A stretch of 64,000 nt of DNA. Source: a virus (taxonomy: Duplodnaviria > Heunggongvirae > Uroviricota > Caudoviricetes). Every line of letters starts with the position of its first letter. Position 1 is the stretch's first letter. A program made the position numbers and the translations under genes. The stretch is from the IMG/VR virus record IMGVR_UViG_3300001687_001192; one strand, 5' to 3'. Shown here one piece after another: positions 2,393 through 58,197 of this stretch. The notes beneath the pieces are model-generated. The model was not told the DNA's origin, did not search any database, and was given only the letters and a program-made list of their open reading frames with translations.

Positions 2393-2415
2393 GGAGAATA
2401 ACCAAGGAGACTACT

Positions 2416-7330: not shown

Positions 7331-7376
7331 CTAAGCAGGCGACTAGACGAAAGGTCTGGTGGAAAGGAAGAACGTG

Positions 7377-10400: not shown

Positions 10401-10414
10401 CTAAGGAGGAAACA

Positions 10415-41649: not shown

Positions 41650-43005
41650 ATGGATATAAATGCTATAGACATACCTAGTCAAGTTTTAGAAGTGTGCCGT
41701 CGCCTCAGAGATGTCGGATACGAAAGTTATTTGGTAGGTGGCGCTTTAAGGGATCATATAGTTGGTCGCGTACCTAAAGACTACGACGTAGCTACAAACG
41801 CTCTACCTGATAAAGTCACAACATTATTTAAGAAAGTGGTCCCTACTGGGTTACAGTTTGGGACAGTGTCTGTACATTTGGGCGGCATGGAAATAGAAGT
41901 AACCACATATAGATCAGATGGTCGGTACTTAGATGGTAGAAGGCCGTCCGAAGTTTCGTTCGCAAATTCGGTCGAGGAAGATTTGGCTCGCCGGGATTTC
42001 ACAATAAATGCGCTAGCCTTCGACCCGATCGGAGAATCGAGAGTTATCGACCCATTCGGCGGAGAGTCAGATATATATAGCAAACGCATCAGGGCGGTAG
42101 GAGATCCGGCCGCAAGATTCGCCGAAGACGGCTTGCGGGCGATGAGAGCTGTTCGGTTCGCTGCACAGTTAGGCTTTACCATAGAGGCTCCCACATTCAA
42201 GGCTATTAAGCGCTCGTATGACGTGTTTGAGAAAATAAGTATGGAGCGTATCAGGGACGAGCTGATCAAGGTACTTGAGTCAGAGCATCGCACTTATGGA
42301 GTCGAGTTACTCGTGTCATCTGGACTAATGGCCCATATCATACCGGCCATTTCACGGATGCAGGGATGCGTTCAGAACAGATACCATAATAAGGATGTGT
42401 ACGGCCATTCTCTGGCTACTCTCCTTGGAGTAGTACAAAAAGATTACATCCTAAGACTGGCCGGGCTGTTACATGACATTGGAAAACCTGATACATCTGT
42501 ACTGGACAGGGATCGGAATGGTGCATTTAAGTTCCCAGAACACGAACGAGTCGGAGCTTTATATGTCGAGGCTATATCTAAGCGGCTTAAATTCTCTAGA
42601 GAAGATGTTATAAGGCTTACACACTTAGTGCGCTATCATATGAGACTAGCGGCACCGCCAAAGTCTGACGCTGGGCTGAGGAAAATGATTAGGAAATTGG
42701 GGCGTGAGCATATTGATGACTTTATAGCACTTAGAAGGGCAGATCTATTCGACTCGCCTAATAAAGATCACTTACTTTTTGATTTGGATGGCGTATCGCA
42801 GCGGATTGATAGGATATTAGCTGAGAAACATCCATTGGAAATGAGAGACCTTGCCGTGTCTGGGAATGACATAATGGAGCATTTGGGCATTGAATCTGGC
42901 CCGCGCGTCGGGCAAGTTTTGTCATTTCTAATGAATAAGGTACTTGAGCAACCGTTACTAAACGAAAAGGAAAAATTATTGGAGCTTGCAAATGAGTACA
43001 GGTAA
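41650..43005 (+). CDS. cca: CCA-adding tRNA nucleotidyltransferase with HD domain
   Basis: GGALRD...DYD head-domain motifs, RRDFTINA, HD motif HDIGK; 451 aa. Confidence 0.85.
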   Translation: MDINAIDIPSQVLEVCRRLRDVGYESYLVGGALRDHIVGRVPKDYDVATNALPDKVTTLFKKVVPTGLQFGTVSVHLGGMEIEVTTYRSDGRYLDGRRPSEVSFANSVEEDLARRDFTINALAFDPIGESRVIDPFGGESDIYSKRIRAVGDPAARFAEDGLRAMRAVRFAAQLGFTIEAPTFKAIKRSYDVFEKISMERIRDELIKVLESEHRTYGVELLVSSGLMAHIIPAISRMQGCVQNRYHNKDVYGHSLATLLGVVQKDYILRLAGLLHDIGKPDTSVLDRDRNGAFKFPEHERVGALYVEAISKRLKFSREDVIRLTHLVRYHMRLAAPPKSDAGLRKMIRKLGREHIDDFIALRRADLFDSPNKDHLLFDLDGVSQRIDRILAEKHPLEMRDLAVSGNDIMEHLGIESGPRVGQVLSFLMNKVLEQPLLNEKEKLLELANEYR

Positions 43006-43201
43006 ATTCACTGTTTGGGCTTTGACCCCGACAGCTCCCAATTGGATTGATTGGTGCGAAGTTGGAAAAACGGATAGTCTAGAGGAAGCTAGGAGTGTTG
43101 GAGCGAAGTGCGGTTACAAATGTTGGGGGATTAGGAAAACATCGGAAGTAAAGCCTAGTTACGTATGTGGCGGGCTAGATGATGGAAGATGGCTCAAGTG
43201 A
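42986..43201 (+). CDS. hypothetical protein
   Basis: overlap. Confidence 0.45.
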   Translation: MQMSTGKFTVWALTPTAPNWIDWCEVGKTDSLEEARSVGAKCGYKCWGIRKTSEVKPSYVCGGLDDGRWLK

Positions 43202-43208
43202 GGTGAGA

Positions 43209-43421
43209 ATGGGCAACAAGAAACGGCCGATAGTCGAACACGTTAAAAGAAGGGGACCTAAACCACCCCAAACCTTTGTATACAGGGAAATAGTGCGAGT
43301 AGATAAAGAAAAATCTAATAGGATGATCGCGGTGATGGAGAAGCTGACACGAGACGTTGCCCATGCTATCTCTGTAGCTAAATTTCGCCTTATGGATCTC
43401 AGGAAAGGTTTAGGAAAGTAA
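43209..43421 (+). CDS. small basic protein
   Basis: GTGAGGTGAGA-ATG in track ORF 43179..43421. Confidence 0.4.
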   Translation: MGNKKRPIVEHVKRRGPKPPQTFVYREIVRVDKEKSNRMIAVMEKLTRDVAHAISVAKFRLMDLRKGLGK

Positions 43422-43422
43422 A

Positions 43423-43809
43423 ATGTCGTTTGAGGGATATTATCAGATCCTTTGCAGTAATGGGCATGAGACTTGTGTAGATTGCTACGACCACCCACAT
43501 TTTGGGAAAGAGGAGACAGACGAATTCGGAACGAGGTATCCGTGGAAATGTCATTGTGGAGCTAACGCTACTTGGTGGAACCTGGTTGATGTTACAAATG
43601 GTTCATCTTGTACAGCATGCGACGGTGTTGAAGAATGCGAATGGTGTATGGATGGGCGTGTAGACGGATGCGTGACACTTGAAGAGAAGGCACCTTCCAA
43701 ACGTTGTAAGTGTAATAAATGTGGTAATTCGCACTTAGCGGAGGAAGCTACATATAAAGTTCCGCTGAAGTCATGTGGTCACCATATTGGAGAGGAGAAT
43801 GAAAAATGA
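43423..43809 (+). CDS. Cys-rich zinc-binding protein (multiple CxxC pairs)
   Basis: TAAAATGTCG. Confidence 0.55.
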   Translation: MSFEGYYQILCSNGHETCVDCYDHPHFGKEETDEFGTRYPWKCHCGANATWWNLVDVTNGSSCTACDGVEECEWCMDGRVDGCVTLEEKAPSKRCKCNKCGNSHLAEEATYKVPLKSCGHHIGEENEK

Positions 43810-44243
43810 GGTTTATTTTATTAGTGATTGTGATGGCAATGACAGTTGGGTGTGCTACACTCAATAAAGATAATAATAGCGATAAAGATCGCATATGTTT
43901 AGAGCCTGGCAACTATCATTTTACTAATATTGCCTACGATCCTAAGATACCAAGTATTAATTCGTGTCCTAAAGATGTTATCACATGGGGGGACAAATGG
44001 GGAGCTACTGTAAAAATACCACCTGGGTCTGATATATTGTTGTGTGGTAATGTACACATAGGTGAGGAACACCGTAAAATACCCGAAAAAGCTGTTGCAG
44101 ATAACATCTATATGTCATTCAAGAACAGGCTCACAATGATTACCATGCCGGAACGCCTTGTAGGAGTTCTTATATTGCGCATGAGACTTGGCGGACACCA
44201 ATGCTTTTCTTTCTATCGTATAGAGGGAAGGAAGGCAAAGTGA
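43806..44243 (+). CDS. lipoprotein (MTVGCATL)
   Basis: ATGA overlap. Confidence 0.55.
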   Translation: MRFILLVIVMAMTVGCATLNKDNNSDKDRICLEPGNYHFTNIAYDPKIPSINSCPKDVITWGDKWGATVKIPPGSDILLCGNVHIGEEHRKIPEKAVADNIYMSFKNRLTMITMPERLVGVLILRMRLGGHQCFSFYRIEGRKAK

Positions 44244-44656
44244 TGTTCTTTAAGCTTGGAGAGAATGTGTGCTATAATCCAGAGTTCTTTAGGCTCGCTA
44301 AAGAAACCAAGTACAAACCCCAATGTCTCTACTGCCCTATAAAAGACCTCGGATGGTTTTTGAAGGCAGAAGGCCACATTGGGAAGGTTTTTGTTATCAG
44401 AAATATAGTTGTACGTGACGATAACCACATAGAGGTGTCGTTTGAAAACAAATCAGATAAAATAAGCGAGACTTTCGGCGTTATGCGCAGTGGTCAATTC
44501 GGACATTGGGAGGATGGTCCAGTTCTCTTGATTGCTCCTAATGAATGTATAGGTAAATCTTTAGAGACAGACAAACTGTGTCCAAAGGGTTGTGGAGTCG
44601 AGGGAATCTGGGTTAACCTTGGTCAGAGGTGTCCAAAGTGTGGCGAAGTGTACTAA
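44243..44656 (+). CDS. Cys-containing protein (C-terminal CPKGCG...CPKCGEVY)
   Basis: GTGATG overlap; AGGGAAGGAAGG RBS. Confidence 0.55.
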   Translation: MFFKLGENVCYNPEFFRLAKETKYKPQCLYCPIKDLGWFLKAEGHIGKVFVIRNIVVRDDNHIEVSFENKSDKISETFGVMRSGQFGHWEDGPVLLIAPNECIGKSLETDKLCPKGCGVEGIWVNLGQRCPKCGEVY

Positions 44657-44666
44657 AGGAGGAGAT

Positions 44667-44996
44667 ATGTTGGCGTTCGGTATAGTCACTATAGTAATCT
44701 TAGGGTTTACTATTATCTTCTTGACCTATATTGGTTTTAAGGAAAGCAACGCTACGGCAGCAGCTTTTATTTGTCCGTTAGCAATATCCACGGTGTTTGC
44801 CTCTTTAGCACTTGCTGGGATAACTATAGTGCCACTCGGAGTTTTATCCATCATATTTATGATACTTTTAATACTATTTCTCATAATTATGATCTTCTGG
44901 GCTGCTGCCTATGATAGCAGTGATGTAGCGATGGGTGGTATTATACTTTTATGTGTCTCAACTAATACTATTGTTTATTTAGGTTGTGTGTTATGA
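44667..44996 (+). CDS. membrane protein (3 TM)
   Basis: CTAAAGGAGGAGAT-ATG in track ORF 44592..44996. Confidence 0.5.
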   Translation: MLAFGIVTIVILGFTIIFLTYIGFKESNATAAAFICPLAISTVFASLALAGITIVPLGVLSIIFMILLILFLIIMIFWAAAYDSSDVAMGGIILLCVSTNTIVYLGCVL

Positions 44997-45649
44997 GAAT
45001 ATTTCTAGTTAGGCACGGAGAATCTATTAGTAACATAGATCATTCCGTGCATAAAGGATTTGCTGACCATGCTATACCCTTATCAGATAAAGGAGTTATA
45101 CAGGCAATTGAAGCTGGGAAAGTGATATGCGACTATCTTGATTCGTCTCTTGAGTTTGCAGATCCCTGCTGCCGTCTGTGGTGTAGTCCATATAAGCGAA
45201 CGAGACAAACGGCGGACGGCATTATGAAAAGTTGCGGGGAATTTATTATTGATAGAAAAGAACATGTGCTTTTATGTGAACAGCAATTTGGGCTGTTTGA
45301 TGGTCTTTCCAGAGAGGAGCGTGCTTCCTTATATCCGAATGAGTACGCTTTTTATTCCAAGTGTAAAGGATTTGAAGGCAAATTTTGGGCTAGGATGCCC
45401 TTGGGAGAGAGTAGATTCGACGTTGCTACTCGCGTACATCAAGCTTTTGGGACGTTCCACAGAGACCATGATAAACATGGAGTAGAAAATATTATTGTGG
45501 TATGTCATGGAGTTACACTTAGAGCATTTGTAATGATGTGGTGCCACCTTAGCCCTGAGTGGTTTGATGCTGAGCCCAATCCTAAAAACGGGGCGGTCAG
45601 ATTAATTTGGGACAGTGTAGATCAAGGATATTTAACAGATGGATCTTAA
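44993..45649 (+). CDS. histidine phosphatase superfamily (phosphoglycerate-mutase-like; RHGES motif)
   Basis: LVRHGES catalytic motif; ATGA overlap. Confidence 0.6.
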   Translation: MRIFLVRHGESISNIDHSVHKGFADHAIPLSDKGVIQAIEAGKVICDYLDSSLEFADPCCRLWCSPYKRTRQTADGIMKSCGEFIIDRKEHVLLCEQQFGLFDGLSREERASLYPNEYAFYSKCKGFEGKFWARMPLGESRFDVATRVHQAFGTFHRDHDKHGVENIIVVCHGVTLRAFVMMWCHLSPEWFDAEPNPKNGAVRLIWDSVDQGYLTDGS

Positions 45650-45767
45650 GAATGAATGGACTGAGGGATATAGCAGTGTAGATGATGAGGAAGAAGACAA
45701 TGAGTAGACCGAACGTCGTTTACTGATAGTTCCGGGCTGTTGTGTAGAGTCTAAAACACTTGCCACA

Positions 45768-46076
45768 GTGGGTTTGAAATTAGGCGACGAGGATATTTAT
45801 GAGAACGAAGTTGGACAGGCTGACTGCAAGCCCGAATGGGAGGTGTTAAAGTCGTGGGGAGATTATGTAAGTCCGCACTGCCCCAAGTTTCATAGACTAA
45901 TAGTTAAATTTTGCCCACATTGTGGAGCTAAAATGCCATCGATTAGACGTAGAGAGGAGCCAATGTCTCCCATTTGTGAAGTCGTAGATGGTGGATATTA
46001 TTGTAACACCTGCGATGAGCGCTTACACGGATGCAAGTGTTGGCCTTGTGAGGCACACTGGGAAGTAGACGAATAA
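45768..46076 (+). CDS. zinc-ribbon protein
   Basis: ORF with CxxC pairs. Confidence 0.5.
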   Translation: MGLKLGDEDIYENEVGQADCKPEWEVLKSWGDYVSPHCPKFHRLIVKFCPHCGAKMPSIRRREEPMSPICEVVDGGYYCNTCDERLHGCKCWPCEAHWEVDE

Positions 46077-46246
46077 AAAACGTGCGCGTGATAGAGTCGT
46101 GCGCGTGAACTCAGATTGCGCGGCGTTGCCGATTTCAGCGCCCCGAAAGTCGCCAATGATTGGTGCAAAAATAGGACAGAGTTTCCGAACCTACCCAGGT
46201 GTTCTGGGGTCGATAGGGAGCGACAGCCAGGTAAAGGAGAGTTATC

Positions 46247-46564
46247 ATGGCTATGCTGAGGATGAATGGACTCGCAACGATTATCGGGTCCAAAGAGTTG
46301 CCACATGAGGTAAAACAGCAAATCATGTCGGCCAGTGAAGGTAAAGCGAAAGCTATCCGCGTCGTCTTGAAAGATCATGAAGGCAACGAGATAGTTCTGA
46401 GAGGGAAACTGGAGCTATCCAGTAAAGGTTCTCTGATGGCTCGCTTTGCTAACGTTATCAAATCTTTTAAACTGGTGGAGGTCGATAGGCCGCAAGCCAA
46501 GGACAAGGAGGCCGAGGCAAAGGAGAGGGCGAAAACCCTCGCCAGAGAACTGACGAATCTCTAA
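46247..46564 (+). CDS. paralog E-1 (GKLELSSKGSLMARF ... FKLVEVD)
   Basis: AAAGGAGAGTTATC-ATG; conserved leader shared with 46691. Confidence 0.6.
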   Translation: MAMLRMNGLATIIGSKELPHEVKQQIMSASEGKAKAIRVVLKDHEGNEIVLRGKLELSSKGSLMARFANVIKSFKLVEVDRPQAKDKEAEAKERAKTLARELTNL

Positions 46565-46690
46565 CAACGAATCGCCCAATGGTCTGGGGCGTATATTAAA
46601 ATACCAGGCCGTGACTCATAGGTTACGCTCTGAACCTACCTACAAAGAAAATAGTGGGGTCGATAGGAGCAATGTCCAAAGGAGGACATC

Positions 46691-46999
46691 ATGGCTAGAT
46701 TGCAGGTTACTGGGTTTGTCACGATCGCGAAGAGTTCTGAGCTGAGTGACGAGGACAAGGCGAAGGTGCTCAAGGCTGCCGAAGGCAAGGTGAAAGCTGT
46801 CCGTGCGGTACTGGTGGACGCCGAGGGCAACGAAGTAGTGATTAGCGGCAAGCTGCAGCTGAGCAGCAAGGGGTCTCTGACCGCTCGCTTTGGCGCCAAG
46901 ATCGAGTCTTTCGAGCTGGTCGAGGTAGACGCCGAAAAGAGCAAGTCTGCTCCCAAGGCTGACAACCTTGCCAAGGAACTGCTAGGTCTCACCGACTAG
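46691..46999 (+). CDS. paralog E-2 (GKLQLSSKGSLTARF ... FELVEVD)
   Basis: AAAGGAGGACATC-ATG; conserved leader. Confidence 0.6.
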   Translation: MARLQVTGFVTIAKSSELSDEDKAKVLKAAEGKVKAVRAVLVDAEGNEVVISGKLQLSSKGSLTARFGAKIESFELVEVDAEKSKSAPKADNLAKELLGLTD

Positions 47000-47083
47000 T
47001 AATCCTTAATCCCACCAAGCAGTTACGCCTGGCCCTGGGGCGTGTCAAATACCAGGGCAACCGTCCCACCAAAAGGAGCTGCT

Positions 47084-47650
47084 ATGCATATCAATCATCT
47101 CTGGACTGAGAGCCGCCCCAATAATATCTCCACGCATATGATAGAAGTAGACGGACTTCCAACCATTGTTGAAGCTAGAGGGCTTGCCCTGCGACTGATA
47201 TCGGAGCTTAATCGGCGAGAGGAGAAAATAGGAGTCGCGGAATCCTGTACTGGTGGTTTAATCGGAAGCCTTATAACCGACATCCCCGGCAGCTCGTCGG
47301 TCTTTGAGATTGGTGTTGTTAGTTACTCGAATGATGCCAAGCATCGCTTACTCGGAGTGTCACGGCATATTCTAACTACTCGCGGCGCGGTCAGCGGCGA
47401 GTGCGTTCTATCGATGGCTAACGGAGTGCGGTTGTTATCTAAAGCTGAATATGGCGTCGCCGTCTCCGGGATAGCAGGACCTGGGGGAGCCACTGAGCAC
47501 AAGCCAGTTGGCACTGTGTTCTTTGGGTTTTCTAGTGTAGATACAAATGTATACACAGAGATCAAGTTCCGTTTAGAAAGGATCGATACCAAATTGGCGT
47601 CCGCGTGTGTGGCGCTATCACTGGCGTCGCATATGATTAAAGAAATATGA
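47084..47650 (+). CDS. CinA C-terminal domain / PncC-like NMN amidohydrolase
   Basis: AESCTGG ... TDIPGSS ... YSN ... GAVS ... SGIAGPGG motifs align with PncC; AAAAGGAGCTGCT-ATG. Confidence 0.7.
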   Translation: MHINHLWTESRPNNISTHMIEVDGLPTIVEARGLALRLISELNRREEKIGVAESCTGGLIGSLITDIPGSSSVFEIGVVSYSNDAKHRLLGVSRHILTTRGAVSGECVLSMANGVRLLSKAEYGVAVSGIAGPGGATEHKPVGTVFFGFSSVDTNVYTEIKFRLERIDTKLASACVALSLASHMIKEI

Positions 47651-47665
47651 GAGAAGGGAATTGAG

Positions 47666-48202
47666 ATGAGTGAAGCGTTTCGAGTCATAGGTAAAGATCT
47701 GGTGCGCAAAGTCTACAACGAGCTTCTAACTCCTGGCCGTCCGCTAGACTGGCGACGACAACTAGCGATTGATATTGAGACTTATATAGATACACTGCAC
47801 TATGACAATAAGGAGGCGGAAGCTAGTATAGAAAAGCTATCTAGAGAAATAGGAGAATTACATAAAGCTAATGTCCATGTGGCGGAAGAACAGACGCATG
47901 CGGTTGAAGACGCACTAAGAATATGTAAAGAGATGGAGGAAAAGTGGAGAAAAGCCGAGAACAAAGCTTATGAATTAGCGAGGCAATGGGCCAAACTTAA
48001 AGCATATGTATCAGAGCAATGTAACGATGTAGAGGGTAGGTGTAAAAGAGCGGAGGAGTCGGCAGTTTTCCCGGAATTCTTATTGGATAGAATGCGTGAA
48101 GAAATTAGTTCCTTACGTGATGTGCTGGATTGTATGAGCCTTATTGAGGAAGAAGGATGCGATCACCCGGCGCCATGCAATCTCGCATGTGAACCTTCGT
48201 GA
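47666..48202 (+). CDS. coiled-coil protein
   Basis: GAGAAGGGAATTGAG-ATG. Confidence 0.55.
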   Translation: MSEAFRVIGKDLVRKVYNELLTPGRPLDWRRQLAIDIETYIDTLHYDNKEAEASIEKLSREIGELHKANVHVAEEQTHAVEDALRICKEMEEKWRKAENKAYELARQWAKLKAYVSEQCNDVEGRCKRAEESAVFPEFLLDRMREEISSLRDVLDCMSLIEEEGCDHPAPCNLACEPS

Positions 48203-48470
48203 AGCCCATGACGATAACCTGGTATAACTATTGGACAACATCAGATTGTTCAACTTATAAGTACACGGGAGAGCTAGGAGATAACGGTGGAGGATATGTG
48301 TGATGTCGGTGTAGGATCCAACCTAGGACTTTTGCTTTCTACAGTCGTCTAGAAGACTTTCACAGACCCTCTGTATGTTCATTCTGGAAATCCCCTGACT
48401 GGAAAAGATCTCTGTTTTCTCGTATTGTAACTCTATTCTGGTCATATATGAAACGAATAAGGAGATAAAG

Positions 48471-48602
48471 ATGATAGGCAAGATCCTTTGTTTGCTTGGG
48501 TTTCACCACTATGAACTAGCTCGTCATTGTGTCTACATTTGCGGCCCGGATAAACTCCTTAGATGCACTCGCTGTGGCAGAGAGAAGTGGAGTCGCCCGT
48601 AA
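48471..48602 (+). CDS. small zinc-ribbon protein (43 aa)
   Basis: AATAAGGAGATAAAG-ATG in a 270-nt otherwise ORF-free spacer. Confidence 0.4.
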   Translation: MIGKILCLLGFHHYELARHCVYICGPDKLLRCTRCGREKWSRP

Positions 48603-48644
48603 GGGGAGACGAATGAAGATCCCTATAGAATATATGCGTAGAAA

Positions 48645-49280
48645 GTGCGAAGAATGAGGTATTCAGTAACTGTTGTAATGGATCTAATTGCGGAGGCGGT
48701 TAGACGTAAACGTGGTAGCATAAGTCTGCCAGACGAGACTCAAATTAGGTTGACGAGAACTTTACGGACTTTTTACCGCATGGGAGTAGTTTGCACTAGA
48801 TGCGGCCTTACTGGAACGGTTTTCCGTTCGGTATTACATGATGATAAAGTGCACCTCAACCTATTCGGCGACAAAAATGGGACGCAAGTACTCATGACTT
48901 GCGACCATATTATTCCGCAGTCGCACGGCGGCTCAAACAATTTCCACAATCTACAGGTCTTATGCTGCCAGTGTAACTGTGAAAAAGATAGCCAGTTTGA
49001 CCGGCGGTTGACTGAGAACGCATGGTACTCTTACAAGAGTATTAAAGACTATGTCTGCAACACCTTTAGTGAAACGTCCCAACGCCGTAGATTCTATAGG
49101 GAATTTAAACACATTCAGACGCGGGCCCGAGAGGTCCACAGCGAGAGCAAGCTGCTATGCGGCAGCGCTGACGAGATCCTTCAACTCCTATACTATATTA
49201 GAGAAAAGTACGGCTACGACATTCGTCTACGCCACCTAAAGAGAATTCCGGCACCGATAGGAGAATCATGTGCTTATTGA
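48645..49280 (+). CDS. HNH endonuclease
   Basis: CTRCG ... LMTCDHIIPQSHGGSNNFHNLQVLCCQCNCEK HNH motif. Confidence 0.75.
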   Translation: MRRMRYSVTVVMDLIAEAVRRKRGSISLPDETQIRLTRTLRTFYRMGVVCTRCGLTGTVFRSVLHDDKVHLNLFGDKNGTQVLMTCDHIIPQSHGGSNNFHNLQVLCCQCNCEKDSQFDRRLTENAWYSYKSIKDYVCNTFSETSQRRRFYREFKHIQTRAREVHSESKLLCGSADEILQLLYYIREKYGYDIRLRHLKRIPAPIGESCAY

Positions 49281-50577: not shown

Positions 50578-50933
50578 TCGGTGGAGTCTTATTTGGTGTT
50601 GGGTTCTTTGCATGGATGCTATCGATGAGGATAGCAGAGTCTAAGTCCTTAGAAGTTCTAAATATTTCTAAGCTCGCAAACATGTTTCATATATTGTTTA
50701 TAGCCGGGCTGGCGACGCTGGTAGTGGTACTTAGTGCGCCACATGGCAACAGAATAGGCTTTGAACATTTGTGGCTCGTACCACTTGCAGCGCCGGTATA
50801 CTATCTAGTATATGCCCTGTTTGCGAGAAAGCATCGAGAGTCGTGGGCAGAACTATTTAGAGTGGATAAATGGAATGGTTTGGTTCTAGCCACCTCTATA
50901 CTTGCCGTAACTACGGTTACTGTGTTTGTCTAA
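50574..50933 (+). CDS. membrane protein (4 TM)
   Basis: ATGA overlap. Confidence 0.5.
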   Translation: MIGGVLFGVGFFAWMLSMRIAESKSLEVLNISKLANMFHILFIAGLATLVVVLSAPHGNRIGFEHLWLVPLAAPVYYLVYALFARKHRESWAELFRVDKWNGLVLATSILAVTTVTVFV

Positions 50934-51220
50934 TGAAACAACGCACACTCGACGAATTGTTTGATAGTATCTTAGAACCATGTTTGAAACGCGACCTTGA
51001 TGCTGCATATGTAATAGAAAGGGTACTCCAAGAATTTCCCAGTTCCGAGGCAGGAACGCGCCGTCTTATAGAGACGCTTAAATCTGCTAAAGATATGGCT
51101 GCGGCATGTCATGGTGTTGTATCCATGCCAGTTAATTTGTTTGATGCAATAGTAAAAGTTGCTGAGGTCGCAGCAATATTAAATACATATAAATCTAAGA
51201 CGGATATTTGTGATTTATAG
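50933..51220 (+). CDS. hypothetical protein
   Basis: TAATG overlap. Confidence 0.5.
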   Translation: MKQRTLDELFDSILEPCLKRDLDAAYVIERVLQEFPSSEAGTRRLIETLKSAKDMAAACHGVVSMPVNLFDAIVKVAEVAAILNTYKSKTDICDL

Positions 51221-51316
51221 GTACCCGTAGCTCAGTCTGGTCTAGAGCCACTTGATCTTGGGGTCTGGGATCGCGACCCTTCTCAAGATGCGCAGGTTCA
51301 AATCCTGCCGGGTACT
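51221..51316 (+). tRNA. atypical tRNA, 96 nt: canonical acceptor (gtacccg/cgggtac), U8A9, D arm gctc-agtctggtcta-gagc, T arm gcagg-TTCAAAT-cctgc; 43-nt central region with stem cttga/tcaag enclosing hairpin gggtc-tgggatcgc-gaccc; anticodon not assignable
   Basis: arm-by-arm fold; starts immediately after stop codon. Confidence 0.55.
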
Positions 51317-51340
51317 CTATTTATTTTTAAGGAGAGAAAC

Positions 51341-51766
51341 ATGGACAAAAAAGAGAAGATTATAGAAATTATTAATGTTTTGGGAGATGAAGGTAGGGAC
51401 AAGATGGTTAGGGGACTCTTGGAACAATTCCATGCGATGGCTGTTAATGGTGACCCTACTATAGATGCCGATTTGTTGAAGAGGGTTTTGGACAAGTTTG
51501 CTGATTCTTTGCCGACAGTTTTATCCACTACAGAGGATCAAATTGTCGCTGTCTATGATCGTCACCTTTCAGAGACCGAGGTAGACGATTTGTTGAGTTT
51601 CTATAGATCCGAAAGTGGGATTAGCATTGTAGAGAAGCTACCTGTTGTCCAACTGGAGTCGTATTTGATTTACTCTGGTGCCGCGAGTCTTGCGTTCGAG
51701 AAAATTATGGATGAGGAGATAGCAGCTGGTCCGCAAGAAAAAAAAGGTGAGAAAGAGTGGAATTAA
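51341..51766 (+). CDS. hypothetical protein
   Basis: TTTTTAAGGAGAGAAAC-ATG. Confidence 0.6.
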   Translation: MDKKEKIIEIINVLGDEGRDKMVRGLLEQFHAMAVNGDPTIDADLLKRVLDKFADSLPTVLSTTEDQIVAVYDRHLSETEVDDLLSFYRSESGISIVEKLPVVQLESYLIYSGAASLAFEKIMDEEIAAGPQEKKGEKEWN

Positions 51767-51997
51767 ATGACCTGGAAACATCAAAGGAAGATACATATAG
51801 GCAATGAGGTGTGGTATTATGCCATTACTAAGACTGGCATTTCTAGGTGTCGTGATGTAGTAATTAAAAGTCCAGATGGTAAAGTTTACAGGTATAATGC
51901 TAGGAATGAAGCCATTACTCCATCGATAGTTAAAGAGTACATAGAAGGAGCAATTCTTGGCAAGTCAGAAATACATTCGAAAGGGAAGAAAATATAG
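51767..51997 (+). CDS. hypothetical protein
   Basis: TAAATGA overlap. Confidence 0.5.
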   Translation: MTWKHQRKIHIGNEVWYYAITKTGISRCRDVVIKSPDGKVYRYNARNEAITPSIVKEYIEGAILGKSEIHSKGKKI

Positions 51998-52364
51998 TCC
52001 AGATGAGGTACTCGTCCGTATTTATCCCGCCGGACGTTGGAAAAAGAAAATCGACCTCGATGGTGACATGGTCAAGATTACGTCCGATAGGCTTTTCATC
52101 TTTAAGAAAAGTCTTACCTGTGTTCGATGTGGCATTAAAGGTTCCTTTCTTGTTAAAGAAAGGTGTTCTGGACAACCGGCTTTCCATCTTAATCTATATG
52201 CAATAGACGACGACGGTAACGAGATATTAATGACCAAGGACCATATCGTTCCCAGGTCTAAGTTCGGTCCTGATCATATAAATAACTATCAGACAATGTG
52301 TCGTAAATGTAATGCAGAGAAAAAAGATGAATCAGAAACTAAGAGAGAAAGTAGTAGCGTATAA
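51957..52364 (+). CDS. HNH endonuclease (TTG start)
   Basis: CVRCG ... LMTKDHIVPRSKFGPDHINNYQTMCRKCNAEK; AGAAGGAGCAATTC-TTG. Confidence 0.7.
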   Translation: MASQKYIRKGRKYSPDEVLVRIYPAGRWKKKIDLDGDMVKITSDRLFIFKKSLTCVRCGIKGSFLVKERCSGQPAFHLNLYAIDDDGNEILMTKDHIVPRSKFGPDHINNYQTMCRKCNAEKKDESETKRESSSV

Positions 52365-52380
52365 GAATACATGGAAGGAG

Positions 52381-52473
52381 ATGAGTCTTGTTGAAAAGAT
52401 ATTCATGCTAGCCATGATAGTTGTCGGGACGGCCATGATCGTGTCGGGGGGGTCTATGGTATGTAACTCATGA
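52381..52473 (+). CDS. 30-aa hydrophobic peptide
   Basis: ATGGAAGGAG-ATG strong RBS. Confidence 0.35.
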   Translation: MSLVEKIFMLAMIVVGTAMIVSGGSMVCNS

Positions 52474-53063
52474 CATTATCAAAGGTTTATGGGTGGTTTG
52501 TCCTGATATTTTCTATCTCGATCTGTGTATTTCAAGGTCTGTGTGATATTAGTACTAAAGTGCAAAACACCAAAACGGCCAAACATAGGAAGTCTATTAT
52601 TTTTAGAGTAGATAGTTCTTTTACCAAAGCAGAACAAGAGGCGATTGCCCAGGCGCTATGGAACTGGGAACTTTCTAGCGGCGGGTATTTCCAGTTCGGT
52701 TTCTATGTAGATGATATAGGTTTAGGCGATGTCTTAACGTGGCAGGAAGATGGCATTATGACCATCTATGACGCCTCGTCATTTTTATCATGGAAGTTGT
52801 ATATTGGAAAGACCCTTCTAACTGTTTCTGGTACGATAGGGCTAGCAATGCTATATCCAGGGGACATATTCATCTTTTCTACCGTTTTACATGGAAGACA
52901 GATGGAACAGTTAGTAGTACATGAAGTGGGCCATTTGTTGGGAGTGCCGCATTCCAGCGATCCTAAAAGTGTCATGCATGGCAAGTTATTCGACCCACGT
53001 ACAGTGTCGCTCCAAGGATATGATATCGAAACGGCAAAGAAACTTCACGAGTCTTTCAAATGA
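52470..53063 (+). CDS. metzincin-type zinc metalloprotease (HEVGHLLGVPHS ... Met-turn SVMHG) with signal peptide
   Basis: HExxHxxGxxH + downstream Met. Confidence 0.65.
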   Translation: MTLSKVYGWFVLIFSISICVFQGLCDISTKVQNTKTAKHRKSIIFRVDSSFTKAEQEAIAQALWNWELSSGGYFQFGFYVDDIGLGDVLTWQEDGIMTIYDASSFLSWKLYIGKTLLTVSGTIGLAMLYPGDIFIFSTVLHGRQMEQLVVHEVGHLLGVPHSSDPKSVMHGKLFDPRTVSLQGYDIETAKKLHESFK

Positions 53064-54172
53064 GTCTTCCCCCAGAAGTTTTATCTCAAAGGCCAATAGC
53101 GGTTCCAGGAAGTCCATTCTGGAATGTGTTTAAAAGATTTGGAAGAGATGAAATAATTGCAATGGCTGTCAATGTGCTTGGCACAGCCATAATGAGCCTG
53201 TTCTCGGCCAGTGCGGTGCTGCTAGCGGCCGTTGGCCCGGTGGTCGAAAAGATTGGATTTTTCCCGGCACATTTCGTCGAAGCATGGAAAATCTATAAGA
53301 CAACGTCCGAGATGCAACGGCGAAATCTTTTCCATTATATAAAGAGAGCGGCACGCGGCGGCACGGTCAGCCTAGTAGAAGACGTGCTCGTACATGATCC
53401 TGTATATATTGTCTTGATGTATTTGGGCTTAAATGCATACAGTGGGACACCGGCATGGGTTTTATCTGCTATAAGTTTTGTAATTGCCGTAGTCGTAGTA
53501 GCATTTATAGAGGTAGGCGTTACTGAGGGGCGCTATCTCTTTTTTAAGTGGAGAGCTGGCAGAGCTGGCTTTGAAGTAGAGAAGTACTTTGAATCCAGGT
53601 TCCTCGTCGACGTTACTGTTGACCCAGACCAAGCGATGAAACTCGTGTCGAAGGAGTTCGAGCTTAACACCACATATGAAATGGCGTATAGTGATACCTA
53701 CTTCGAAAGCAAGTTTCCTGAATACTCCGATAGGACGGTGAAGTTCAGGTTAAGGAAACGGACAAATGAGGCGGGCAATTTCGTACGTTCCGCACAGATT
53801 ATATATACTAGAGCTGGAGAAGTCTATCGAAATAAATTAGAACAGTCAAGATTTTTCCCAATTAGAAAGGAGAAGATCTATTTCGAGTTAGATTCGTTGC
53901 ATCCACCTGCCGAACTGGAAGGCACGGCAGGAGAGTTCCTCCGAAAATATATAAACGATTCTAAGCCGCAACCATTACACTTTACTAGGATTGTCGCATA
54001 TAATAAGGTGTTATTAGTATCTGCTGATAGAGTTAAAGGTTCTAGGGATTTCTATTTGTTAGAAGTTAAGGTGTATAAAGAAATCGAAACTTTGATAAAG
54101 GCCATGCGCTTTATTATGAGGAAACTTCCTGTATTACAGACTACGCATGGAAAACTGGAACTTACGACGTAA
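53060..54172 (+). CDS. membrane protein (N-terminal TM bundle, 370 aa)
   Basis: ATGA overlap. Confidence 0.65.
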   Translation: MSLPPEVLSQRPIAVPGSPFWNVFKRFGRDEIIAMAVNVLGTAIMSLFSASAVLLAAVGPVVEKIGFFPAHFVEAWKIYKTTSEMQRRNLFHYIKRAARGGTVSLVEDVLVHDPVYIVLMYLGLNAYSGTPAWVLSAISFVIAVVVVAFIEVGVTEGRYLFFKWRAGRAGFEVEKYFESRFLVDVTVDPDQAMKLVSKEFELNTTYEMAYSDTYFESKFPEYSDRTVKFRLRKRTNEAGNFVRSAQIIYTRAGEVYRNKLEQSRFFPIRKEKIYFELDSLHPPAELEGTAGEFLRKYINDSKPQPLHFTRIVAYNKVLLVSADRVKGSRDFYLLEVKVYKEIETLIKAMRFIMRKLPVLQTTHGKLELTT

Positions 54173-54189
54173 GAAAAAGGAGAAACAGA

Positions 54190-54375
54190 ATGTTTCTAGA
54201 GATCGAGGTTGATACTCGAACTGGTATCGAGAAAGGACAAAAGGAAGTAGATGGAGACCACATTATTGAAAAGCACCCTAACGTTCTTGATCTAATGTCT
54301 TGGGTCAAAGGAGCGCGTGTTGGGTCTGTATTTTCTATTATAAGTCGCGGGTATAAATATAAGAAGGTGTCGTGA
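54190..54375 (+). CDS. small protein
   Basis: AAAAGGAGAAACAGA-ATG. Confidence 0.4.
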   Translation: MFLEIEVDTRTGIEKGQKEVDGDHIIEKHPNVLDLMSWVKGARVGSVFSIISRGYKYKKVS

Positions 54376-54656
54376 TGAATCGGGCACACAAAGCCAAAGC
54401 TTTGCTGCTTTATAATGCAGAACGTATAGAAATGTTGGCCGAAGCCGCCCACATGATCGGCTTCGAAGATCTAGGTGACCGGCTTTTTAATATATCAAAT
54501 GGTATCAAAGATAGCACAAACGCGTTGTTCCGTGCATGGAAGAAGGAGTTCTTCGATCATTGCGATTCTATAAAGGAGGCGGGCGAGAATATACTGGCAG
54601 CGACCTTAGCGGGATTAGAACTAGCAGAAAAGTCAACGACGGAGGACCAAGAGTGA
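54372..54656 (+). CDS. hypothetical protein
   Basis: GTGATG overlap. Confidence 0.5.
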   Translation: MMNRAHKAKALLLYNAERIEMLAEAAHMIGFEDLGDRLFNISNGIKDSTNALFRAWKKEFFDHCDSIKEAGENILAATLAGLELAEKSTTEDQE

Positions 54657-55210
54657 AAGACGGCGACAAGAAGAAGTTGTCTAAGTTTATGAGTCTTGTG
54701 TTGCGACATAAACTAGGAAGTTTAAAATTAGACTCTAGGGGATGTTGCAAAATAGACGATTTAATAAATGTCGTTAATAGAAGAACTAGGCTAAACGTTA
54801 CCCGCGCCGACGTGATTAAACTTACAATTCCGTCCGAAGATCCAAATATTAAAACTAGATTTGAACTGGAAGGAAATTTTATACGAGCTGGACATGGGCA
54901 TTCGATTAAAATAGAAGGGTACGAGAAATTGATTCCGAGTCAACCGCTTTACCATGCTACTACGGAGTCTGTCATAGATTCTATCATGCGATCGGGTTTG
55001 TGTGCTATGAACAGACAAAAGGTACACTTGTCATATGATAAAGCTATTACTATCGAGGCTGCTAAAAGACGTAGCAGAAACATAGTGCTTATACGAATTA
55101 AAAGCGAGGAGGCTGTGTCTGGCGGAGTATCTTTCTATAAAAGTGCAGATGAAAGGATCGTGTTGTCTGATGACATTCCGCCGGAATATTTGGAGGTCGA
55201 GGCATTATGA
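54653..55210 (+). CDS. Tpt1/KptA family RNA 2'-phosphotransferase (NAD-dependent), GTG start
   Basis: SKFMSLVLRH, IRAGHGHS, LYHATT, VHLS motifs; GACGGAGGACCAAGA-GTG overlapping upstream TGA. Confidence 0.7.
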   Translation: MKDGDKKKLSKFMSLVLRHKLGSLKLDSRGCCKIDDLINVVNRRTRLNVTRADVIKLTIPSEDPNIKTRFELEGNFIRAGHGHSIKIEGYEKLIPSQPLYHATTESVIDSIMRSGLCAMNRQKVHLSYDKAITIEAAKRRSRNIVLIRIKSEEAVSGGVSFYKSADERIVLSDDIPPEYLEVEAL

Positions 55211-56265
55211 GATGTTTACTTGTGACTGGTAAATTTGATACCTATGGTGGCAGACCATCGAAGATAGGCCAGATTGTTGCGGAGTCAATCGTCACTTACA
55301 ACAAAGCTTTCAGAGAAGTAAGGCATATAAACGGTGGTAGAATAGAGTTAATACCGAGCTTGGTACGCGATTCCGGGCCCAACTACGACATTATATTCTG
55401 GTTTCCAGACGTGGCAGATCGAGGCTTTGGAATTAAATATGTAGATTTTATTAAAAACCACAACCAAAAGTGCGTCCTAGTAACCTCCAAGAACAATATT
55501 GATTGTAAATACAGTATCAGTAAAATGGTTCAAGGAGCGTTAAAGCAAAAAGCCAACTTGTTTGTAGAATTACAGAAACGCTCAGACAAATACATAGCCC
55601 GAGTACTAGATCCGCTAGGTAATCAATTTTCCGGCTGGAGCGACAACTTTTCCGAGGTCACAACGGCTTTGGTAGGTAGAGCTATAAGGATAAGTGATTT
55701 TACGAGGGTTCCAAGCTCTGCTGCGCATAAAATCGAGACGCCATACAGCGGAGAATTTATAAAGTTTGTTAGGAGTACGGCTGAGCGCATCGGCAGATTC
55801 TTTCAGCCATCTCTTACTCATAGGTTTGTCGGTAACGCGTCGTTTAAGAAAGACGACATGGTCTTTATTACTAGAAGGAATATCGATAAAGCTACTTTAC
55901 ACTGTTCAAATTTTGTAGGGATCTCTAACTTACAACCACGTGGATACAGTTTTCACGGACAGTTCAAACCTTCTGTTGACTCTCCAATTCATCTACGACT
56001 CTATGAAATATACCCTGAGATAAATTATATTGTACATGGTCATGCATATATAAATGGTTTTGTTACTACAGAAACGGTAGTTCCGTGTGGGTCACTGGAA
56101 GAGGCAGATTTAATACATAGCTGTTTTCCTGATAAAAGACGTACCAGTTTTGCTTTAAATCTAAAAGGACATGGATTTATTGCCTTAGCTAACGAAGTAG
56201 ACGCATTGCGCGATCTGACCTTTAACTTGGTTCCTAGACCATTGCCGGAAATGATTAATGAATGA
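55207..56265 (+). CDS. protein with C-terminal class II aldolase/adducin-like domain
   Basis: YIVHGH ... ALNLKGHGFIALANEVDAL resembles class II aldolase fold; N-terminal half unknown. Confidence 0.5.
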   Translation: MRCLLVTGKFDTYGGRPSKIGQIVAESIVTYNKAFREVRHINGGRIELIPSLVRDSGPNYDIIFWFPDVADRGFGIKYVDFIKNHNQKCVLVTSKNNIDCKYSISKMVQGALKQKANLFVELQKRSDKYIARVLDPLGNQFSGWSDNFSEVTTALVGRAIRISDFTRVPSSAAHKIETPYSGEFIKFVRSTAERIGRFFQPSLTHRFVGNASFKKDDMVFITRRNIDKATLHCSNFVGISNLQPRGYSFHGQFKPSVDSPIHLRLYEIYPEINYIVHGHAYINGFVTTETVVPCGSLEEADLIHSCFPDKRRTSFALNLKGHGFIALANEVDALRDLTFNLVPRPLPEMINE

Positions 56266-56687
56266 GAGTTATTAACAAAAGATTTAACGAATTTCCGACA
56301 CCCATAAGAAAAGCCATTAAGAGCTTGAGTCTCAGGAAAGAGGGTCATTCGAGCCTTGTATTCCAAAGTGAACCAGATATAGATACATTTATTGCTTTAA
56401 ACGAGGACGGTATCTTGATAGGATGGGCTATATGCAGTAGGAAATGGCTTGAACATCCCGTGGTCGTGAATAGAGTGGGCGTCAACATCGAAATGAAACG
56501 ACCTGTTATAATGCTTTACGTGCGTAAATCTATGAGAAGAAAGGGAGTTGGCTCCATACTAATGTCAGCTGTAATAGCTAAACATAGTAAGGTTGCTGTC
56601 TGTCCATGGAATTCGGAGTCGCGAGGATTTTTTAACAAACTTAAGAAAAACTATGCTGGTCTACCAAATGCTCCAGGATATTGGTGA
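56262..56687 (+). CDS. GNAT family acetyltransferase
   Basis: RRKGVGSILM acetyl-CoA binding motif. Confidence 0.55.
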   Translation: MRVINKRFNEFPTPIRKAIKSLSLRKEGHSSLVFQSEPDIDTFIALNEDGILIGWAICSRKWLEHPVVVNRVGVNIEMKRPVIMLYVRKSMRRKGVGSILMSAVIAKHSKVAVCPWNSESRGFFNKLKKNYAGLPNAPGYW

Positions 56688-56691
56688 TAAA

Positions 56692-57147
56692 ATGCCTCGA
56701 TATTTTAAACGTATAACAATACCAGAACTTAGAGAAGAAATTAAAGAATCAATAGTATATGAAGATGGTTTGCATGGTTATGCTTGGCCTTTAGATATCC
56801 CACAAGTAAAGAAAGACCTTAAAAAGTGTAAGTTTGATTTTGAGAACCATGAGGTATCTCCGGAGTTATGGACTCCTCAGAGATTGATGGGGTTAGTAAC
56901 ATTGAATAACGGCTTGACGTTTTGGGGACAGTCTGCTGGTGGAGACTGGGAGTTTCCAGTATTCTTTATTCTATATTGGGATGGCAAAAAAGTAAGAGGG
57001 TATATTCCTAATGAAGGTAATCATTGGAATAAAAAGACAAAAATGGCTTATGGAAATGGTGAAGATGAGATGATCATAGTAGACAAACTTAAGTTTGACG
57101 TTGACAAGCTTGAAGCAGATATAAGGGAACGAATCAAAGAGAGGTAA
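56692..57147 (+). CDS. hypothetical protein
   Basis: in-frame ATG in track ORF 56593..57147 just after upstream stop. Confidence 0.5.
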   Translation: MPRYFKRITIPELREEIKESIVYEDGLHGYAWPLDIPQVKKDLKKCKFDFENHEVSPELWTPQRLMGLVTLNNGLTFWGQSAGGDWEFPVFFILYWDGKKVRGYIPNEGNHWNKKTKMAYGNGEDEMIIVDKLKFDVDKLEADIRERIKER

Positions 57148-57150
57148 TGG

Positions 57151-58197
57151 ATGTTAAGGAAGCTAGCTTCAATTCAAGTAGTTGACAAACTAGAGTCTAT
57201 TTCTGGAGCCGATAGAATAGAGCTGGCTTCTATCATGGGCTGGAAAGTCATTGTAAAGAAAGGAGAATTCGCCGAGGGAGATAAATGCGTATTTTTTGAG
57301 ATAGATTCTATCCTGCCAGACGGTCAGCCTTGGGCAGAGTTCATGAGGCCACGAAAATTTAGGGTTAAAACCCTTAAGATGCGCGGCGTTCTATCTCAGG
57401 GGCTTGCCCTCCCACTGAGCATACTTGGAAAACCAGGCATGTTTAGGACGCTATTTTATAAGATAACTAAACTCAGTCCTTGGAAGGTTGGAGATGACGT
57501 AACCAAAACTCTTAAGATAAAGAAGCATGATCCCACCGTGAGAGGCCATGGTTTCGATTCTGGGAGCTTTTTAGCTCCATTTCCTCCTTTCATCCCGAAA
57601 ACGGACGAAATCCGCTTACAATCGGCTCTAGGGCTTCTGAGCGAATTGAAGGGACATCCGTTTTACATTTCGGTTAAATGTGATGGGACATCTGGTACAT
57701 TTTATAAGTTAAATAATGAATTATTCTGCTGTTCTAGGAATCGAATTGTCAAACCTGGTGACAACGTCTACTGGGAGATCGCACGTAAATATAATTTGGA
57801 AAAGAAACTTCCGGAAGGTATAGCTATTCAAGGAGAAATCTGTAGTCCTGGTATACAGAAAAACAGATTGTCTCTTAAAGAGCCGGAATTATTTGTATTT
57901 GACGTTTTACGGATTAAAGGGGTAGAATACTTTGATCTGCCACAAATGCAATTGTTCTGCCAGGAACACGGCTTAGAGACTGTACCAATCGAGCGTGTTG
58001 TAGCTAGTCCCGATAATTTCGACTATTCTCTTGAGAATTGGATTGACCTTGCAAAAGGCAAATATCCGAACGGAATTAATCGCAGGGAGGGAATTGTCGT
58101 AAGACCAGTCACCAAGGTACGTAGCCAAGTGTTACGCGGCGGCAGGGTAAGTTTTAAAGTCATTAACAACGACTATTTATTGAAAGACGAGGATTAA
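57151..58197 (+). CDS. ATP-dependent RNA ligase, DraRnl/Rnl5-like (N-terminal OB domain + nucleotidyltransferase KxDG)
   Basis: N-terminus MLRKLASIQVVDKLESISGADRIELASIMGWKVIVKKGEF; motif I ISVKCDGTSGTF. Confidence 0.65.
   Translation: MLRKLASIQVVDKLESISGADRIELASIMGWKVIVKKGEFAEGDKCVFFEIDSILPDGQPWAEFMRPRKFRVKTLKMRGVLSQGLALPLSILGKPGMFRTLFYKITKLSPWKVGDDVTKTLKIKKHDPTVRGHGFDSGSFLAPFPPFIPKTDEIRLQSALGLLSELKGHPFYISVKCDGTSGTFYKLNNELFCCSRNRIVKPGDNVYWEIARKYNLEKKLPEGIAIQGEICSPGIQKNRLSLKEPELFVFDVLRIKGVEYFDLPQMQLFCQEHGLETVPIERVVASPDNFDYSLENWIDLAKGKYPNGINRREGIVVRPVTKVRSQVLRGGRVSFKVINNDYLLKDED

Follow-up and report, generated by a model that had tools for sequence, protein, structure and literature searches.

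A phage-encoded Tpt1 and an Rnl5-family RNA ligase as putative members of a dispersed tRNA-maintenance kit in a very large uncultured phage

What should be read into a phage genome that places a Tpt1/KptA-type RNA 2'-phosphotransferase close to an ATP-dependent RNA ligase? The question is raised by 64,000 nucleotides of Caudoviricetes DNA (IMG/VR record IMGVR_UViG_3300001687_001192; hereafter the window, positions 1-64000) from an uncultured phage of ~461 kb, in which a Tpt1/KptA gene (54653..55210) and an RNA ligase gene (57151..58197) lie towards one end of a 16.5-kb segment (41650-58197). A preliminary description had treated this segment as a single gene set for healing and sealing RNA ends, linked to NAD, and had taken ligase plus Tpt1 as the mark of eukaryal or fungal-type tRNA splicing, in which the ligase leaves a junction 2'-phosphate that Tpt1 removes. 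We lean, a little beyond even confidence, towards a different interpretation: that the two enzymes belong to a dispersed tRNA-maintenance kit with NAD support. Its four putative members—a CCA-adding enzyme, a Thg1-like polymerase, an Rnl5-family ligase and a Tpt1 whose active site is intact—were each identified by homology, and their genes are loosely clustered, or dispersed, rather than gathered in one operon.

The family of the ligase bears most directly on the question. Its predicted product (348 aa; this and all other protein-coding features of the window described here are on the + strand) matches the Pfam PHA02142 OB domain (PF21189; 9e-27, residues 5-89) and RNA_ligase (PF09414; 3e-23, residues 170-338), giving an N-terminal OB-like module and a nucleotidyltransferase (NTase) domain without a C-terminal appendage, the architecture of the Rnl5 (DraRnl/NgrRnl-type) family. 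It aligns end to end with Naegleria NgrRnl (PDB 5cot; 1.4e-43; 348 aa over NgrRnl residues 4-339 of 340), with K176 of motif I (KCDG) opposite NgrRnl K170 (KLDG) and with motifs III, IIIa, IV and V (QGEI, FVFDV, REGIVV and SFKVI) kept; against the NCBIfam equivalog TIGR02306 it scores 145.6 bits, slightly under the cut-off of 151.15. Since the match to NgrRnl covers the full length and includes the motif I lysine, the label of DraRnl-like ligase with a KxDG motif was well chosen, and the enzyme is an Rnl5 ligase. Characterised members of this family seal 3'-OH/5'-PO4 nicks in duplexes in which RNA provides the 3'-OH strand (PMC4408790, PMC1807946, PMC5397189). Such sealing leaves no 2'-phosphate, so the ligase family offers no ground for invoking fungal-type splicing; the sole ligase in the window is of the Rnl5 type and not a Trl1-type enzyme that requires a 2'-PO4 end.

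The second enzyme is a predicted Tpt1/KptA NAD+-dependent RNA 2'-phosphotransferase, which matches Pfam PTS_2-RNA at 2.8e-26 (93.1 bits, cut-off 26) and six solved Tpt1 structures (best 9e-21), and which scores 72-127 bits against the NCBIfam Tpt1 equivalogs, all under their cut-offs of 231-279. The called gene in the source contig begins at 54653 (185 aa); the open reading frame (ORF) extends over 54536-55210 (224 aa) and is used here for residue numbering. In that numbering the catalytic tetrad R57, H58, R108 and R160 is intact, corresponding to R16, H17, R64 and R119, which are essential in the Runella enzyme RslTpt1 (PMC6097658). Profile, structural matches and catalytic residues together bear out the earlier assignment, for which a profile check had been proposed. 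The best-established role of Tpt1 is the removal of a junction 2'-PO4 (PMC6097658); some Tpt1 enzymes also remove terminal 2'- and 3'-phosphates with NAD+ in vitro (PMC6573784), and two further sources describe ADP-ribose capping of 5'-phosphates and erasure of Up47 in archaeal tRNA (PMC12678800, PMC9095486).

The remaining two members are predicted to work on tRNA ends. The 451-aa product of the gene at 41650..43005 is a class II CCA-adding tRNA nucleotidyltransferase that also carries an HD domain; it matches Pfam PolyA_pol (PF01743; 9e-35), PolyA_pol_RNAbd (PF12627; 1.3e-16), HD and tRNA_NucTran2_2 and passes the NCBIfam CCA equivalog NF009814 (299.6 bits, cut-off 290). Its Pol-beta head domain and RNA-binding neck, together with the curated score, place it in class II, and the motifs GGALRD, DYDV, RRDFTINA, EDGLR and LLHDIGKP are present in its sequence. 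None of the five tRNA or tRNA-like genes of the window (7261, 10332, 29936, 51221 and 61987) encodes CCA—their 3' ends consist of the discriminator base, one C and then TA—so that CCA addition is obligatory for maturation of the phage tRNAs. The Thg1-like 3'-5' tRNA polymerase (331 aa) has only its start in the window (63957..64000) and continues past the window end; the preliminary description lacks it because the gene straddles that end. Complete on contig L001 (16807-17802; L numbers are our labels for contigs), it matches Pfam Thg1 (4.3e-30) and Thg1C (2.9e-14), which makes it a Thg1/TLP-domain protein and, judged by homology, adds a predicted tRNA 5'-end repair function to the set.

Which enzyme, then, might heal broken ends before they are sealed? 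Pfam searches covered the 137 + strand ORFs of the window, 50 scanned singly and 87 in one sweep in which EamA and DUF6745 were the only matches. Within this scope there was no polynucleotide kinase (PNK) or other kinase, 2H, Macro, Nudix, HAD or tRNA-splicing endonuclease domain; that is, neither the 2H cyclic phosphodiesterase nor the P-loop polynucleotide kinase of the fungal and plant systems, and none of the domains of T4-type Pnkp (kinase plus HAD phosphatase) or Rnl1. A single Walker A motif is present on the coding strand, in an AAA ATPase (39237-40247; 1.5e-13), the sole P-loop protein of the window, encoded upstream of the CCA-adding enzyme; the earlier remark that no polynucleotide kinase was recognisable still holds. 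By analogy, two partial candidates can be named. Tpt1 itself may contribute by removing terminal phosphates. The HD domain of the E. coli CCA-adding enzyme has 2',3'-cyclic phosphodiesterase and phosphatase activities, and the HD domain of the phage enzyme may do likewise.

The preliminary description had nominated another healer, the 352-aa protein encoded between Tpt1 and the ligase (55207..56265), which we call X. Its confident structure model (predicted local distance difference test score, pLDDT, 93.8) has two domains, a CoaB-like Rossmann domain (about residues 1-195) and a class II aldolase/epimerase-like domain whose metal ligands are intact. This fold, the absence of a Walker A motif and the small-molecule contexts in which the family is found rule X out as a kinase or healing enzyme, and a wrong candidate is thereby removed. 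A 370-aa protein encoded upstream of Tpt1 (53060..54172) was considered as a hidden kinase or phosphoesterase and is likewise ruled out: it combines a helical N-terminal domain with a CYTH/triphosphate-tunnel C-terminal domain and has no Walker A motif. Neither protein has the fold of a P-loop kinase, HAD, 2H or metallophosphoesterase enzyme. As a separate observation, the 370-aa protein shows 40-50% identity to proteins from DPANN archaea (Nanoarchaeota, Woesearchaeota) and from candidate phyla radiation (CPR) bacteria, unusually high for a phage accessory gene.

In X, Pfam Aldolase_II matches residues 197-287 only (2.3e-11), in a BFVD fold search only the C-terminal domain found a match, to a class II aldolase, and fold and metal-binding Asp/His ligands together place that domain in the class II aldolase/epimerase superfamily. 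X scores at best 31 bits against the AraD, FucA, MtnB and OtnC equivalogs (cut-offs 137-389) and has a ~195-aa N-terminal domain that those enzymes lack; the Pfam DFP model, the signature of the CoaB family, does not match this N-terminal domain. Set against CoaB (phosphopantothenate-cysteine ligase) and AraD/FucA, the fusion of the two folds in X is not found among solved structures or BFVD models. A word-indexed search returned 73 full-length homologues, and exhaustive profile searching with the N-terminal domain gave 672 clusters (50% identity); IMG/VR was also searched for relatives, and none was found. On cellular-type contigs, which account for 16 of the 91 X loci surveyed, the arrangement is Amidohydro_2 – X – CoaC/CoaB, and two proteins of ~3,000 aa carry the X module fused to AMP-binding, methyltransferase, DHQ-synthase and alpha/beta-hydrolase domains. 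With the structure model, these contexts point to a probable role in cofactor or small-molecule metabolism and not in RNA end-healing. The family is large, entirely uncharacterised and spread over phages and DPANN-like cells, which gives it an interest of its own. A small GNAT acetyltransferase (56262..56687; 141 aa), weakly assigned by Acetyltransf_1 (2.4e-07; 31.5 bits, cut-off 20.7), directly follows X in the window and in the related contigs L003, L010, L014 and L015.

How widely is this neighbourhood shared? A synteny survey anchored on X took in these four close-clade contigs (X 45-47% identical) and 87 further loci (X 33-39%), 75 of the total being phage-type with the clade contigs included. 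The order Tpt1 – X – GNAT – (0-6 variable genes) – Rnl5 is common to the window and the four related metagenomic phages. In the window and in L003 the stop codons of Tpt1 and X overlap the start codons of the genes that follow, X and GNAT; L010, L014 and L015 have a 47-48-aa ORF or a short gap between Tpt1 and X, but there too X and GNAT overlap or abut. Identities within the clade are 63-64% for Tpt1 and 66-76% for Rnl5, both better conserved than X and GNAT. Only this 3.5-kb block from Tpt1 to Rnl5 is conserved, and unrelated genes intervene elsewhere in the 16.5 kb, so that the notion of a single gene set across the segment has to be given up.

The variable slot between GNAT and Rnl5 sometimes holds an RNA ligase of 215-244 aa consisting of an NTase domain alone. 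In the window it holds a 159-aa protein (56668..57147) with no Pfam or PHROG match and a homologue in L003 only (59%); L003 and L014 have a small ligase at that position, and we rejected the idea that the 159-aa protein is a degenerate small ligase, there being no similarity to the L003 enzyme. Small stand-alone PF09414 ligases (214-244 aa) occur at L003:3483-4184, L014:6438-7085, L028:3393-4118 and L059:3544-4188, adjoining GNAT/Rnl5 or Tpt1 in these related loci, and none occurs in the window.

Outside the clade, L059 carries a tight operon (233-4188) with the order HD_4 – X – 116-aa protein – NadD-like – Tpt1 – small RNA ligase, in which the NadD-like adenylyltransferase (1.5e-15 against PDB 8aih) lies directly upstream of Tpt1 (5e-49), and the reading frames of Tpt1 and the ligase (1e-29) overlap. 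Across the 75 phage-type X loci, a PF09414-type RNA ligase lies within 5.6 kb of X in 10 and within 2 kb in 7; Tpt1 is present in five, four being the clade. The link between Tpt1 and an RNA ligase is a feature of some lineages and is not general.

The proposed link to NAD metabolism rests in part on the window and in part on other phages. A stand-alone CinA/PncC nicotinamide-nucleotide amidohydrolase domain is encoded at 47042..47650 (188 aa in the source contig; Pfam CinA 2.3e-49; TIGR00199 PncC_domain 141 bits, cut-off 68.9). Tpt1 lies beside NAD-synthesis genes both in L059 and in Bacillus phage G, whose gp280 is the closest isolate-phage Tpt1 (36.8% identity) and sits between PncB and NadD/NadE. 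A link between Tpt1 and NAD synthesis thus appears in two independent lineages, and the association with NAD made in the preliminary description is supported by them; the window itself has PncC, 7 kb away from Tpt1. A NADAR-domain protein (23259..23738; 159 aa; Pfam NADAR 4.5e-16; 60 bits, cut-off 35.1; NCBIfam matches under their cut-offs) is encoded 31 kb from the Tpt1 block, and its linkage to the block is therefore weak; NADAR genes lie within 10 kb of X family members in L006, L010, L027 and L029, and an ORF of the same BLAST cluster in L072 is unverified. Near the window end is a RelA/SpoT-type HD_4 hydrolase domain protein (63061..63594; 177 aa; Pfam HD_4 1.8e-08; 34.7 bits, cut-off 27.2), a gene type that directly precedes X in L059. 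The branch 1 histidine phosphatase (44984..45649; 221 aa; Pfam His_Phos_1 4.6e-24; phrog_12933, unknown function) scores far under the cut-offs of the NCBIfam equivalogs CobC, PspA and GpmA. A role as an ADPR-1''-phosphate phosphatase of the NARP1-AP type was considered for it and is not supported, the NARP1-AP enzyme being a Macro domain.

From these parts we propose a working scheme. The Thg1-like enzyme would repair tRNA 5' ends. Rnl5 would reseal broken tRNA stems or anticodon arms once 3'-OH and 5'-PO4 ends are present, whether from the cut itself or after processing; breaks made by metal-dependent nucleases would be its direct substrates. Tpt1 may serve as an NAD+-using remover of phosphates—internal or terminal 2'-PO4 (or 3'-PO4) after opening of a cyclic phosphate—rather than as the finisher of a fungal-type ligation. 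CinA/PncC in the window, like the NadD-type genes beside Tpt1 in other phages, would help to keep up the NAD pool, and X and GNAT, translationally coupled to Tpt1, are probably cofactor or small-molecule enzymes and not part of RNA end-healing.

ARAGORN calls five genes where the preliminary description spoke of 'many tRNA and tRNA-like genes'; the Rfam tRNA threshold is passed by four, and the anticodon arm is abnormal in four of the five. The only standard tRNA is tRNA-Leu(UAA) at 29936. The tRNA-like gene at 7261-7331 (Rfam 56 bits) is perfect in acceptor stem, D arm and T arm and has no anticodon: its anticodon arm is a 5-bp stem with a 4-nt loop (AUAA), exactly three nucleotides below normal. 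A marginal gene at 10332-10401, not called by Rfam, has a 7-nt loop according to ARAGORN, which the minimum-energy fold closes to 3 nt. At 51221..51317 (+ strand; Rfam 46.1 bits) a 26-nt insertion forms a hairpin of ~20 nt in place of the normal anticodon loop; in the syntenic orthologue of L014 (654-753) the arm is likewise extended, to a continuous 10 bp, and the acceptor and T stems contain compensatory changes. DNA-pattern scans for further orthologues in IMG/VR and the JGI metagenomes found none. The fifth gene (61987..62061, + strand; ARAGORN 'tRNA-?(Lys)(tt)'; Rfam 37.8 bits) is tRNA-Lys-like, with a loop CUUUUA that can be drawn as a 6-bp stem with a 6-nt loop or a 5-bp stem with an 8-nt loop; L001 and L002, which are independent assemblies, have the same sequence here.

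An intron of spliceosomal or archaeal type in the gene at 51221, which would call for a ligase and Tpt1, was considered and judged unlikely. Parses in intron mode give C33 and anticodons that disagree between the orthologues (Gln-UUG in one, Gly-GCC in the other), the fold of the insertion is that of a simple hairpin extension rather than a bulge-helix-bulge, and the window scans revealed no splicing endonuclease domain. tRNA-Lys(UUU) is a classic target of anticodon nucleases. The abnormal RNAs could be decoys or nuclease-resistant variants, a suggestion for which the comparison at 51221 comprises two orthologues. With four of five tRNA-like genes affected and one arm conserved with compensatory changes, these anticodon arms are one of three leads that could matter more than the corrective finding itself, the others being the X family and the search for natural substrates of Rnl5 and Tpt1.

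Several observations weigh against the tRNA-maintenance interpretation. The repair-type genes are spaced apart by unrelated ones. The flanks of the conserved block (HNH, M10-like, 370-aa and 435-aa proteins) are syntenic in the relatives as well, so that conservation of the block can be explained by shared ancestry alone. Among isolate phages, Tpt1 is found in 90 records (chiefly from phages of Erwinia, Dickeya and Klebsiella, with Serratia and C. difficile phages and Bacillus phage G) and Rnl5 in 332 (chiefly from phages of Pseudomonas and Aeromonas); the two host groups overlap little, and a general Tpt1-Rnl5 partnership across phages is not supported by these distributions. In two of the three isolate-phage contexts inspected there is no RNA ligase within 8 kb of Tpt1. 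With neither a 5' kinase nor a dedicated cyclic phosphodiesterase in the 64-kb window, a full heal-and-seal route cannot be assembled from it. Physiological substrates are not known for Rnl5 ligases (PMC4408790, PMC1807946, PMC5397189), nor are they known for bacterial or phage Tpt1.

The main rival draws on the same observations. It holds that the genes are independent accessories co-located by ancestry, with Tpt1 engaged in NAD or ADP-ribose conflict through 5'-phosphate ADP-ribosylation of RNA or DNA, or erasing 2'-phosphate tRNA modifications, and not working with the ligase; we give this roughly one chance in four. Besides the syntenic flanks and the largely different sets of isolate phages, it can appeal to the known capping of 5'-phosphates and Up47 erasure (PMC12678800, PMC9095486) and to genomic contexts: Tpt1 of phage G lies within NAD salvage genes with no ligase nearby, and neither Ea35-70 nor phiCD211 has an RNA ligase close to Tpt1 (in phiCD211 a small ORF ~2.7 kb away is annotated 'ATP-dependent DNA ligase'). 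Against it stand the recurrence of Tpt1 with a ligase, in overlapping frames, outside the close clade (L059), the RNA ligases near X in phage-type loci counted above, and the presence in the same genome of CCA-adding and Thg1-like enzymes and several tRNA or tRNA-like genes.

We think it possible, though not likely, that Tpt1, X and GNAT (plus NadD in L059) form a cofactor-handling module that recycles or detoxifies a compound in place of the usual 2H and Macro enzymes. The start-stop overlaps of the three genes, the L059 operon, the absence of 2H and Macro domains from the Pfam results for the window, and the make-up of X, in which a CoaB-like fold that binds nucleotides is joined to a sugar-phosphate aldolase/epimerase fold and its intact metal site, all agree with such a module, and phage handling of ADPR-1''-phosphate is a known step in the arms race (bioRxiv 10.64898/2026.01.28.702374). 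It is opposed by the rarity of Tpt1 at phage-type X loci, where four of the five cases come from one clade, by the company X keeps in cells and in the giant proteins, which indicates other small-molecule pathways, and by a lack of biochemical precedent. An extension that we also regard as improbable would make Tpt1 – X – GNAT an undescribed NAD-consuming pathway for RNA ends or ADP-ribose derivatives, in which X would replace 2H and Macro enzymes and which would act on the unusual tRNA-like RNAs of the phage, for example as nuclease decoys or repair scaffolds; its partners would be Rnl5 in the window and NadD, HD_4 and the small ligase in L059.

The fungal/plant-style model, with a ligase that leaves a junction 2'-PO4, Tpt1 to clear it and another enzyme, perhaps X, to heal, is unlikely: Tpt1 and an ATP-dependent RNA ligase do lie less than 3 kb apart in five related phages (and adjacent in L059), junction 2'-PO4 removal is what Tpt1 is best known for (PMC6097658), and related loci have a second, small NTase-only ligase, but Rnl5 members seal plain 3'-OH/5'-PO4 nicks (PMC4408790, PMC1807946), Trl1 architecture, 2H cyclic phosphodiesterase and P-loop kinase were not found in the window, neither X nor the 370-aa CYTH protein is a kinase, and the small second ligase is not in the window.

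The wider setting of the tRNA-maintenance kit is an accessory-gene arm, as we read the window. Metagenomic contigs of up to 460,921 bp encode its proteins; a megablast of the 16.5-kb segment against 50,697 phage records gave no match, and the phage therefore has no close sequenced relative there. Nearly all credible ORFs are on the + strand, and GC skew is constant and positive along the whole window. As a side observation, GC content declines steadily across the window from ~0.54 to 0.37. All genes named in the preliminary description are present on the + strand, within about 120 bases of the coordinates given there, and Pfam profile searches upheld every family assignment (CCA-adding enzyme, histidine phosphatase, CinA/PncC, Tpt1/KptA, GNAT, RNA ligase, NADAR and HD hydrolase). 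Between these genes the 16.5 kb contain two HNH endonucleases, an M10-like peptidase, a DUF2059 protein and many ORFs without a match. The HNH genes (48645-49280 and 51957-52364) flank the tRNA-like gene at 51221, and their positions, with that of the M10-like peptidase gene at 52470, are kept in related contigs. Upstream of the CCA-adding enzyme is a Band_7/SPFH protein (35378-36313; 8e-19).

For the reading of other phage genomes the corrective is simple: Tpt1 beside an RNA ligase should not be taken for fungal-type chemistry when the ligase is Rnl5. The clade with Tpt1 and Rnl5 less than 3 kb apart, together with the lineage in which Tpt1 follows NadD and overlaps a small ligase, offers a tractable system for substrate discovery.

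Comparison with known systems places the locus more precisely. The ligase resembles Deinococcus DraRnl and Naegleria NgrRnl in being collinear over its full length, in its N-terminal OB domain and NTase motifs I to V, and in lacking a C-terminal domain; it differs in being phage-encoded, near Tpt1 and just below the equivalog cut-off. Like fungal and plant tRNA splicing, which uses Trl1 (ligase, kinase and cyclic phosphodiesterase) plus Tpt1, the locus combines an ATP-dependent RNA ligase with a Tpt1 that has the full tetrad, here in one genome neighbourhood. However, the window ligase is of another family with no need for a 2'-PO4, no kinase or cyclic phosphodiesterase module is visible in the window, and the only tRNA-like gene with an insertion has no recognisable splice motif. 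T4 Pnkp plus Rnl1, which repair anticodon loops, offer a likeness of presumed purpose, the reversal of host tRNA cleavage; in contrast, neither has a homologue in the window, and Rnl5 favours duplex nicks over single-stranded loops. In the NAD salvage cluster of Bacillus phage G (gp273-gp283; L007, 197035-213568), Tpt1 lies among Nudix, PncA-like (isochorismatase-like), PncB, NadD and NadE genes, a context that parallels CinA/PncC of the window and NadD of L059, whereas the window has PncC only, 7 kb away, without NadD, NadE or PncB, and phage G has no ligase next to Tpt1.

The closest parallel comes from two surveys of jumbo phages (Iyer et al. 2021, PMC7824862; Iyer et al. 2022, PMC9503650). 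These treat RNA ligases, KptA, CCA-adding enzyme and Thg1 as one tRNA-repair theme, set the repair enzymes, NADAR and phage tRNAs against host tRNA nucleases, and see in KptA a tie between repair and NAD+; the components are those of our locus, likewise in a very large phage genome. The counter-defense toolkit put forward in the preliminary description fits this picture in its tRNA-maintenance and NAD-linked parts, and it fails in its fungal-type chemistry and in X as healer. In the surveyed phages KptA occurs with 2H and Macro domains and ligases occur with PNK-HAD and RlaP, none of which was found in the window, whereas the window ligase is an Rnl5 and its Tpt1 is coupled to an undescribed CoaB/aldolase-like protein and a GNAT. 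At keyword level, PMC7824862 and PMC9503650 did not yield three features of the locus: the pairing with Rnl5, a neighbourhood free of 2H, Macro and PNK partners, and the coupled X and GNAT. Measured against the surveys, the window is a new example of a toolkit already described in jumbo phages.

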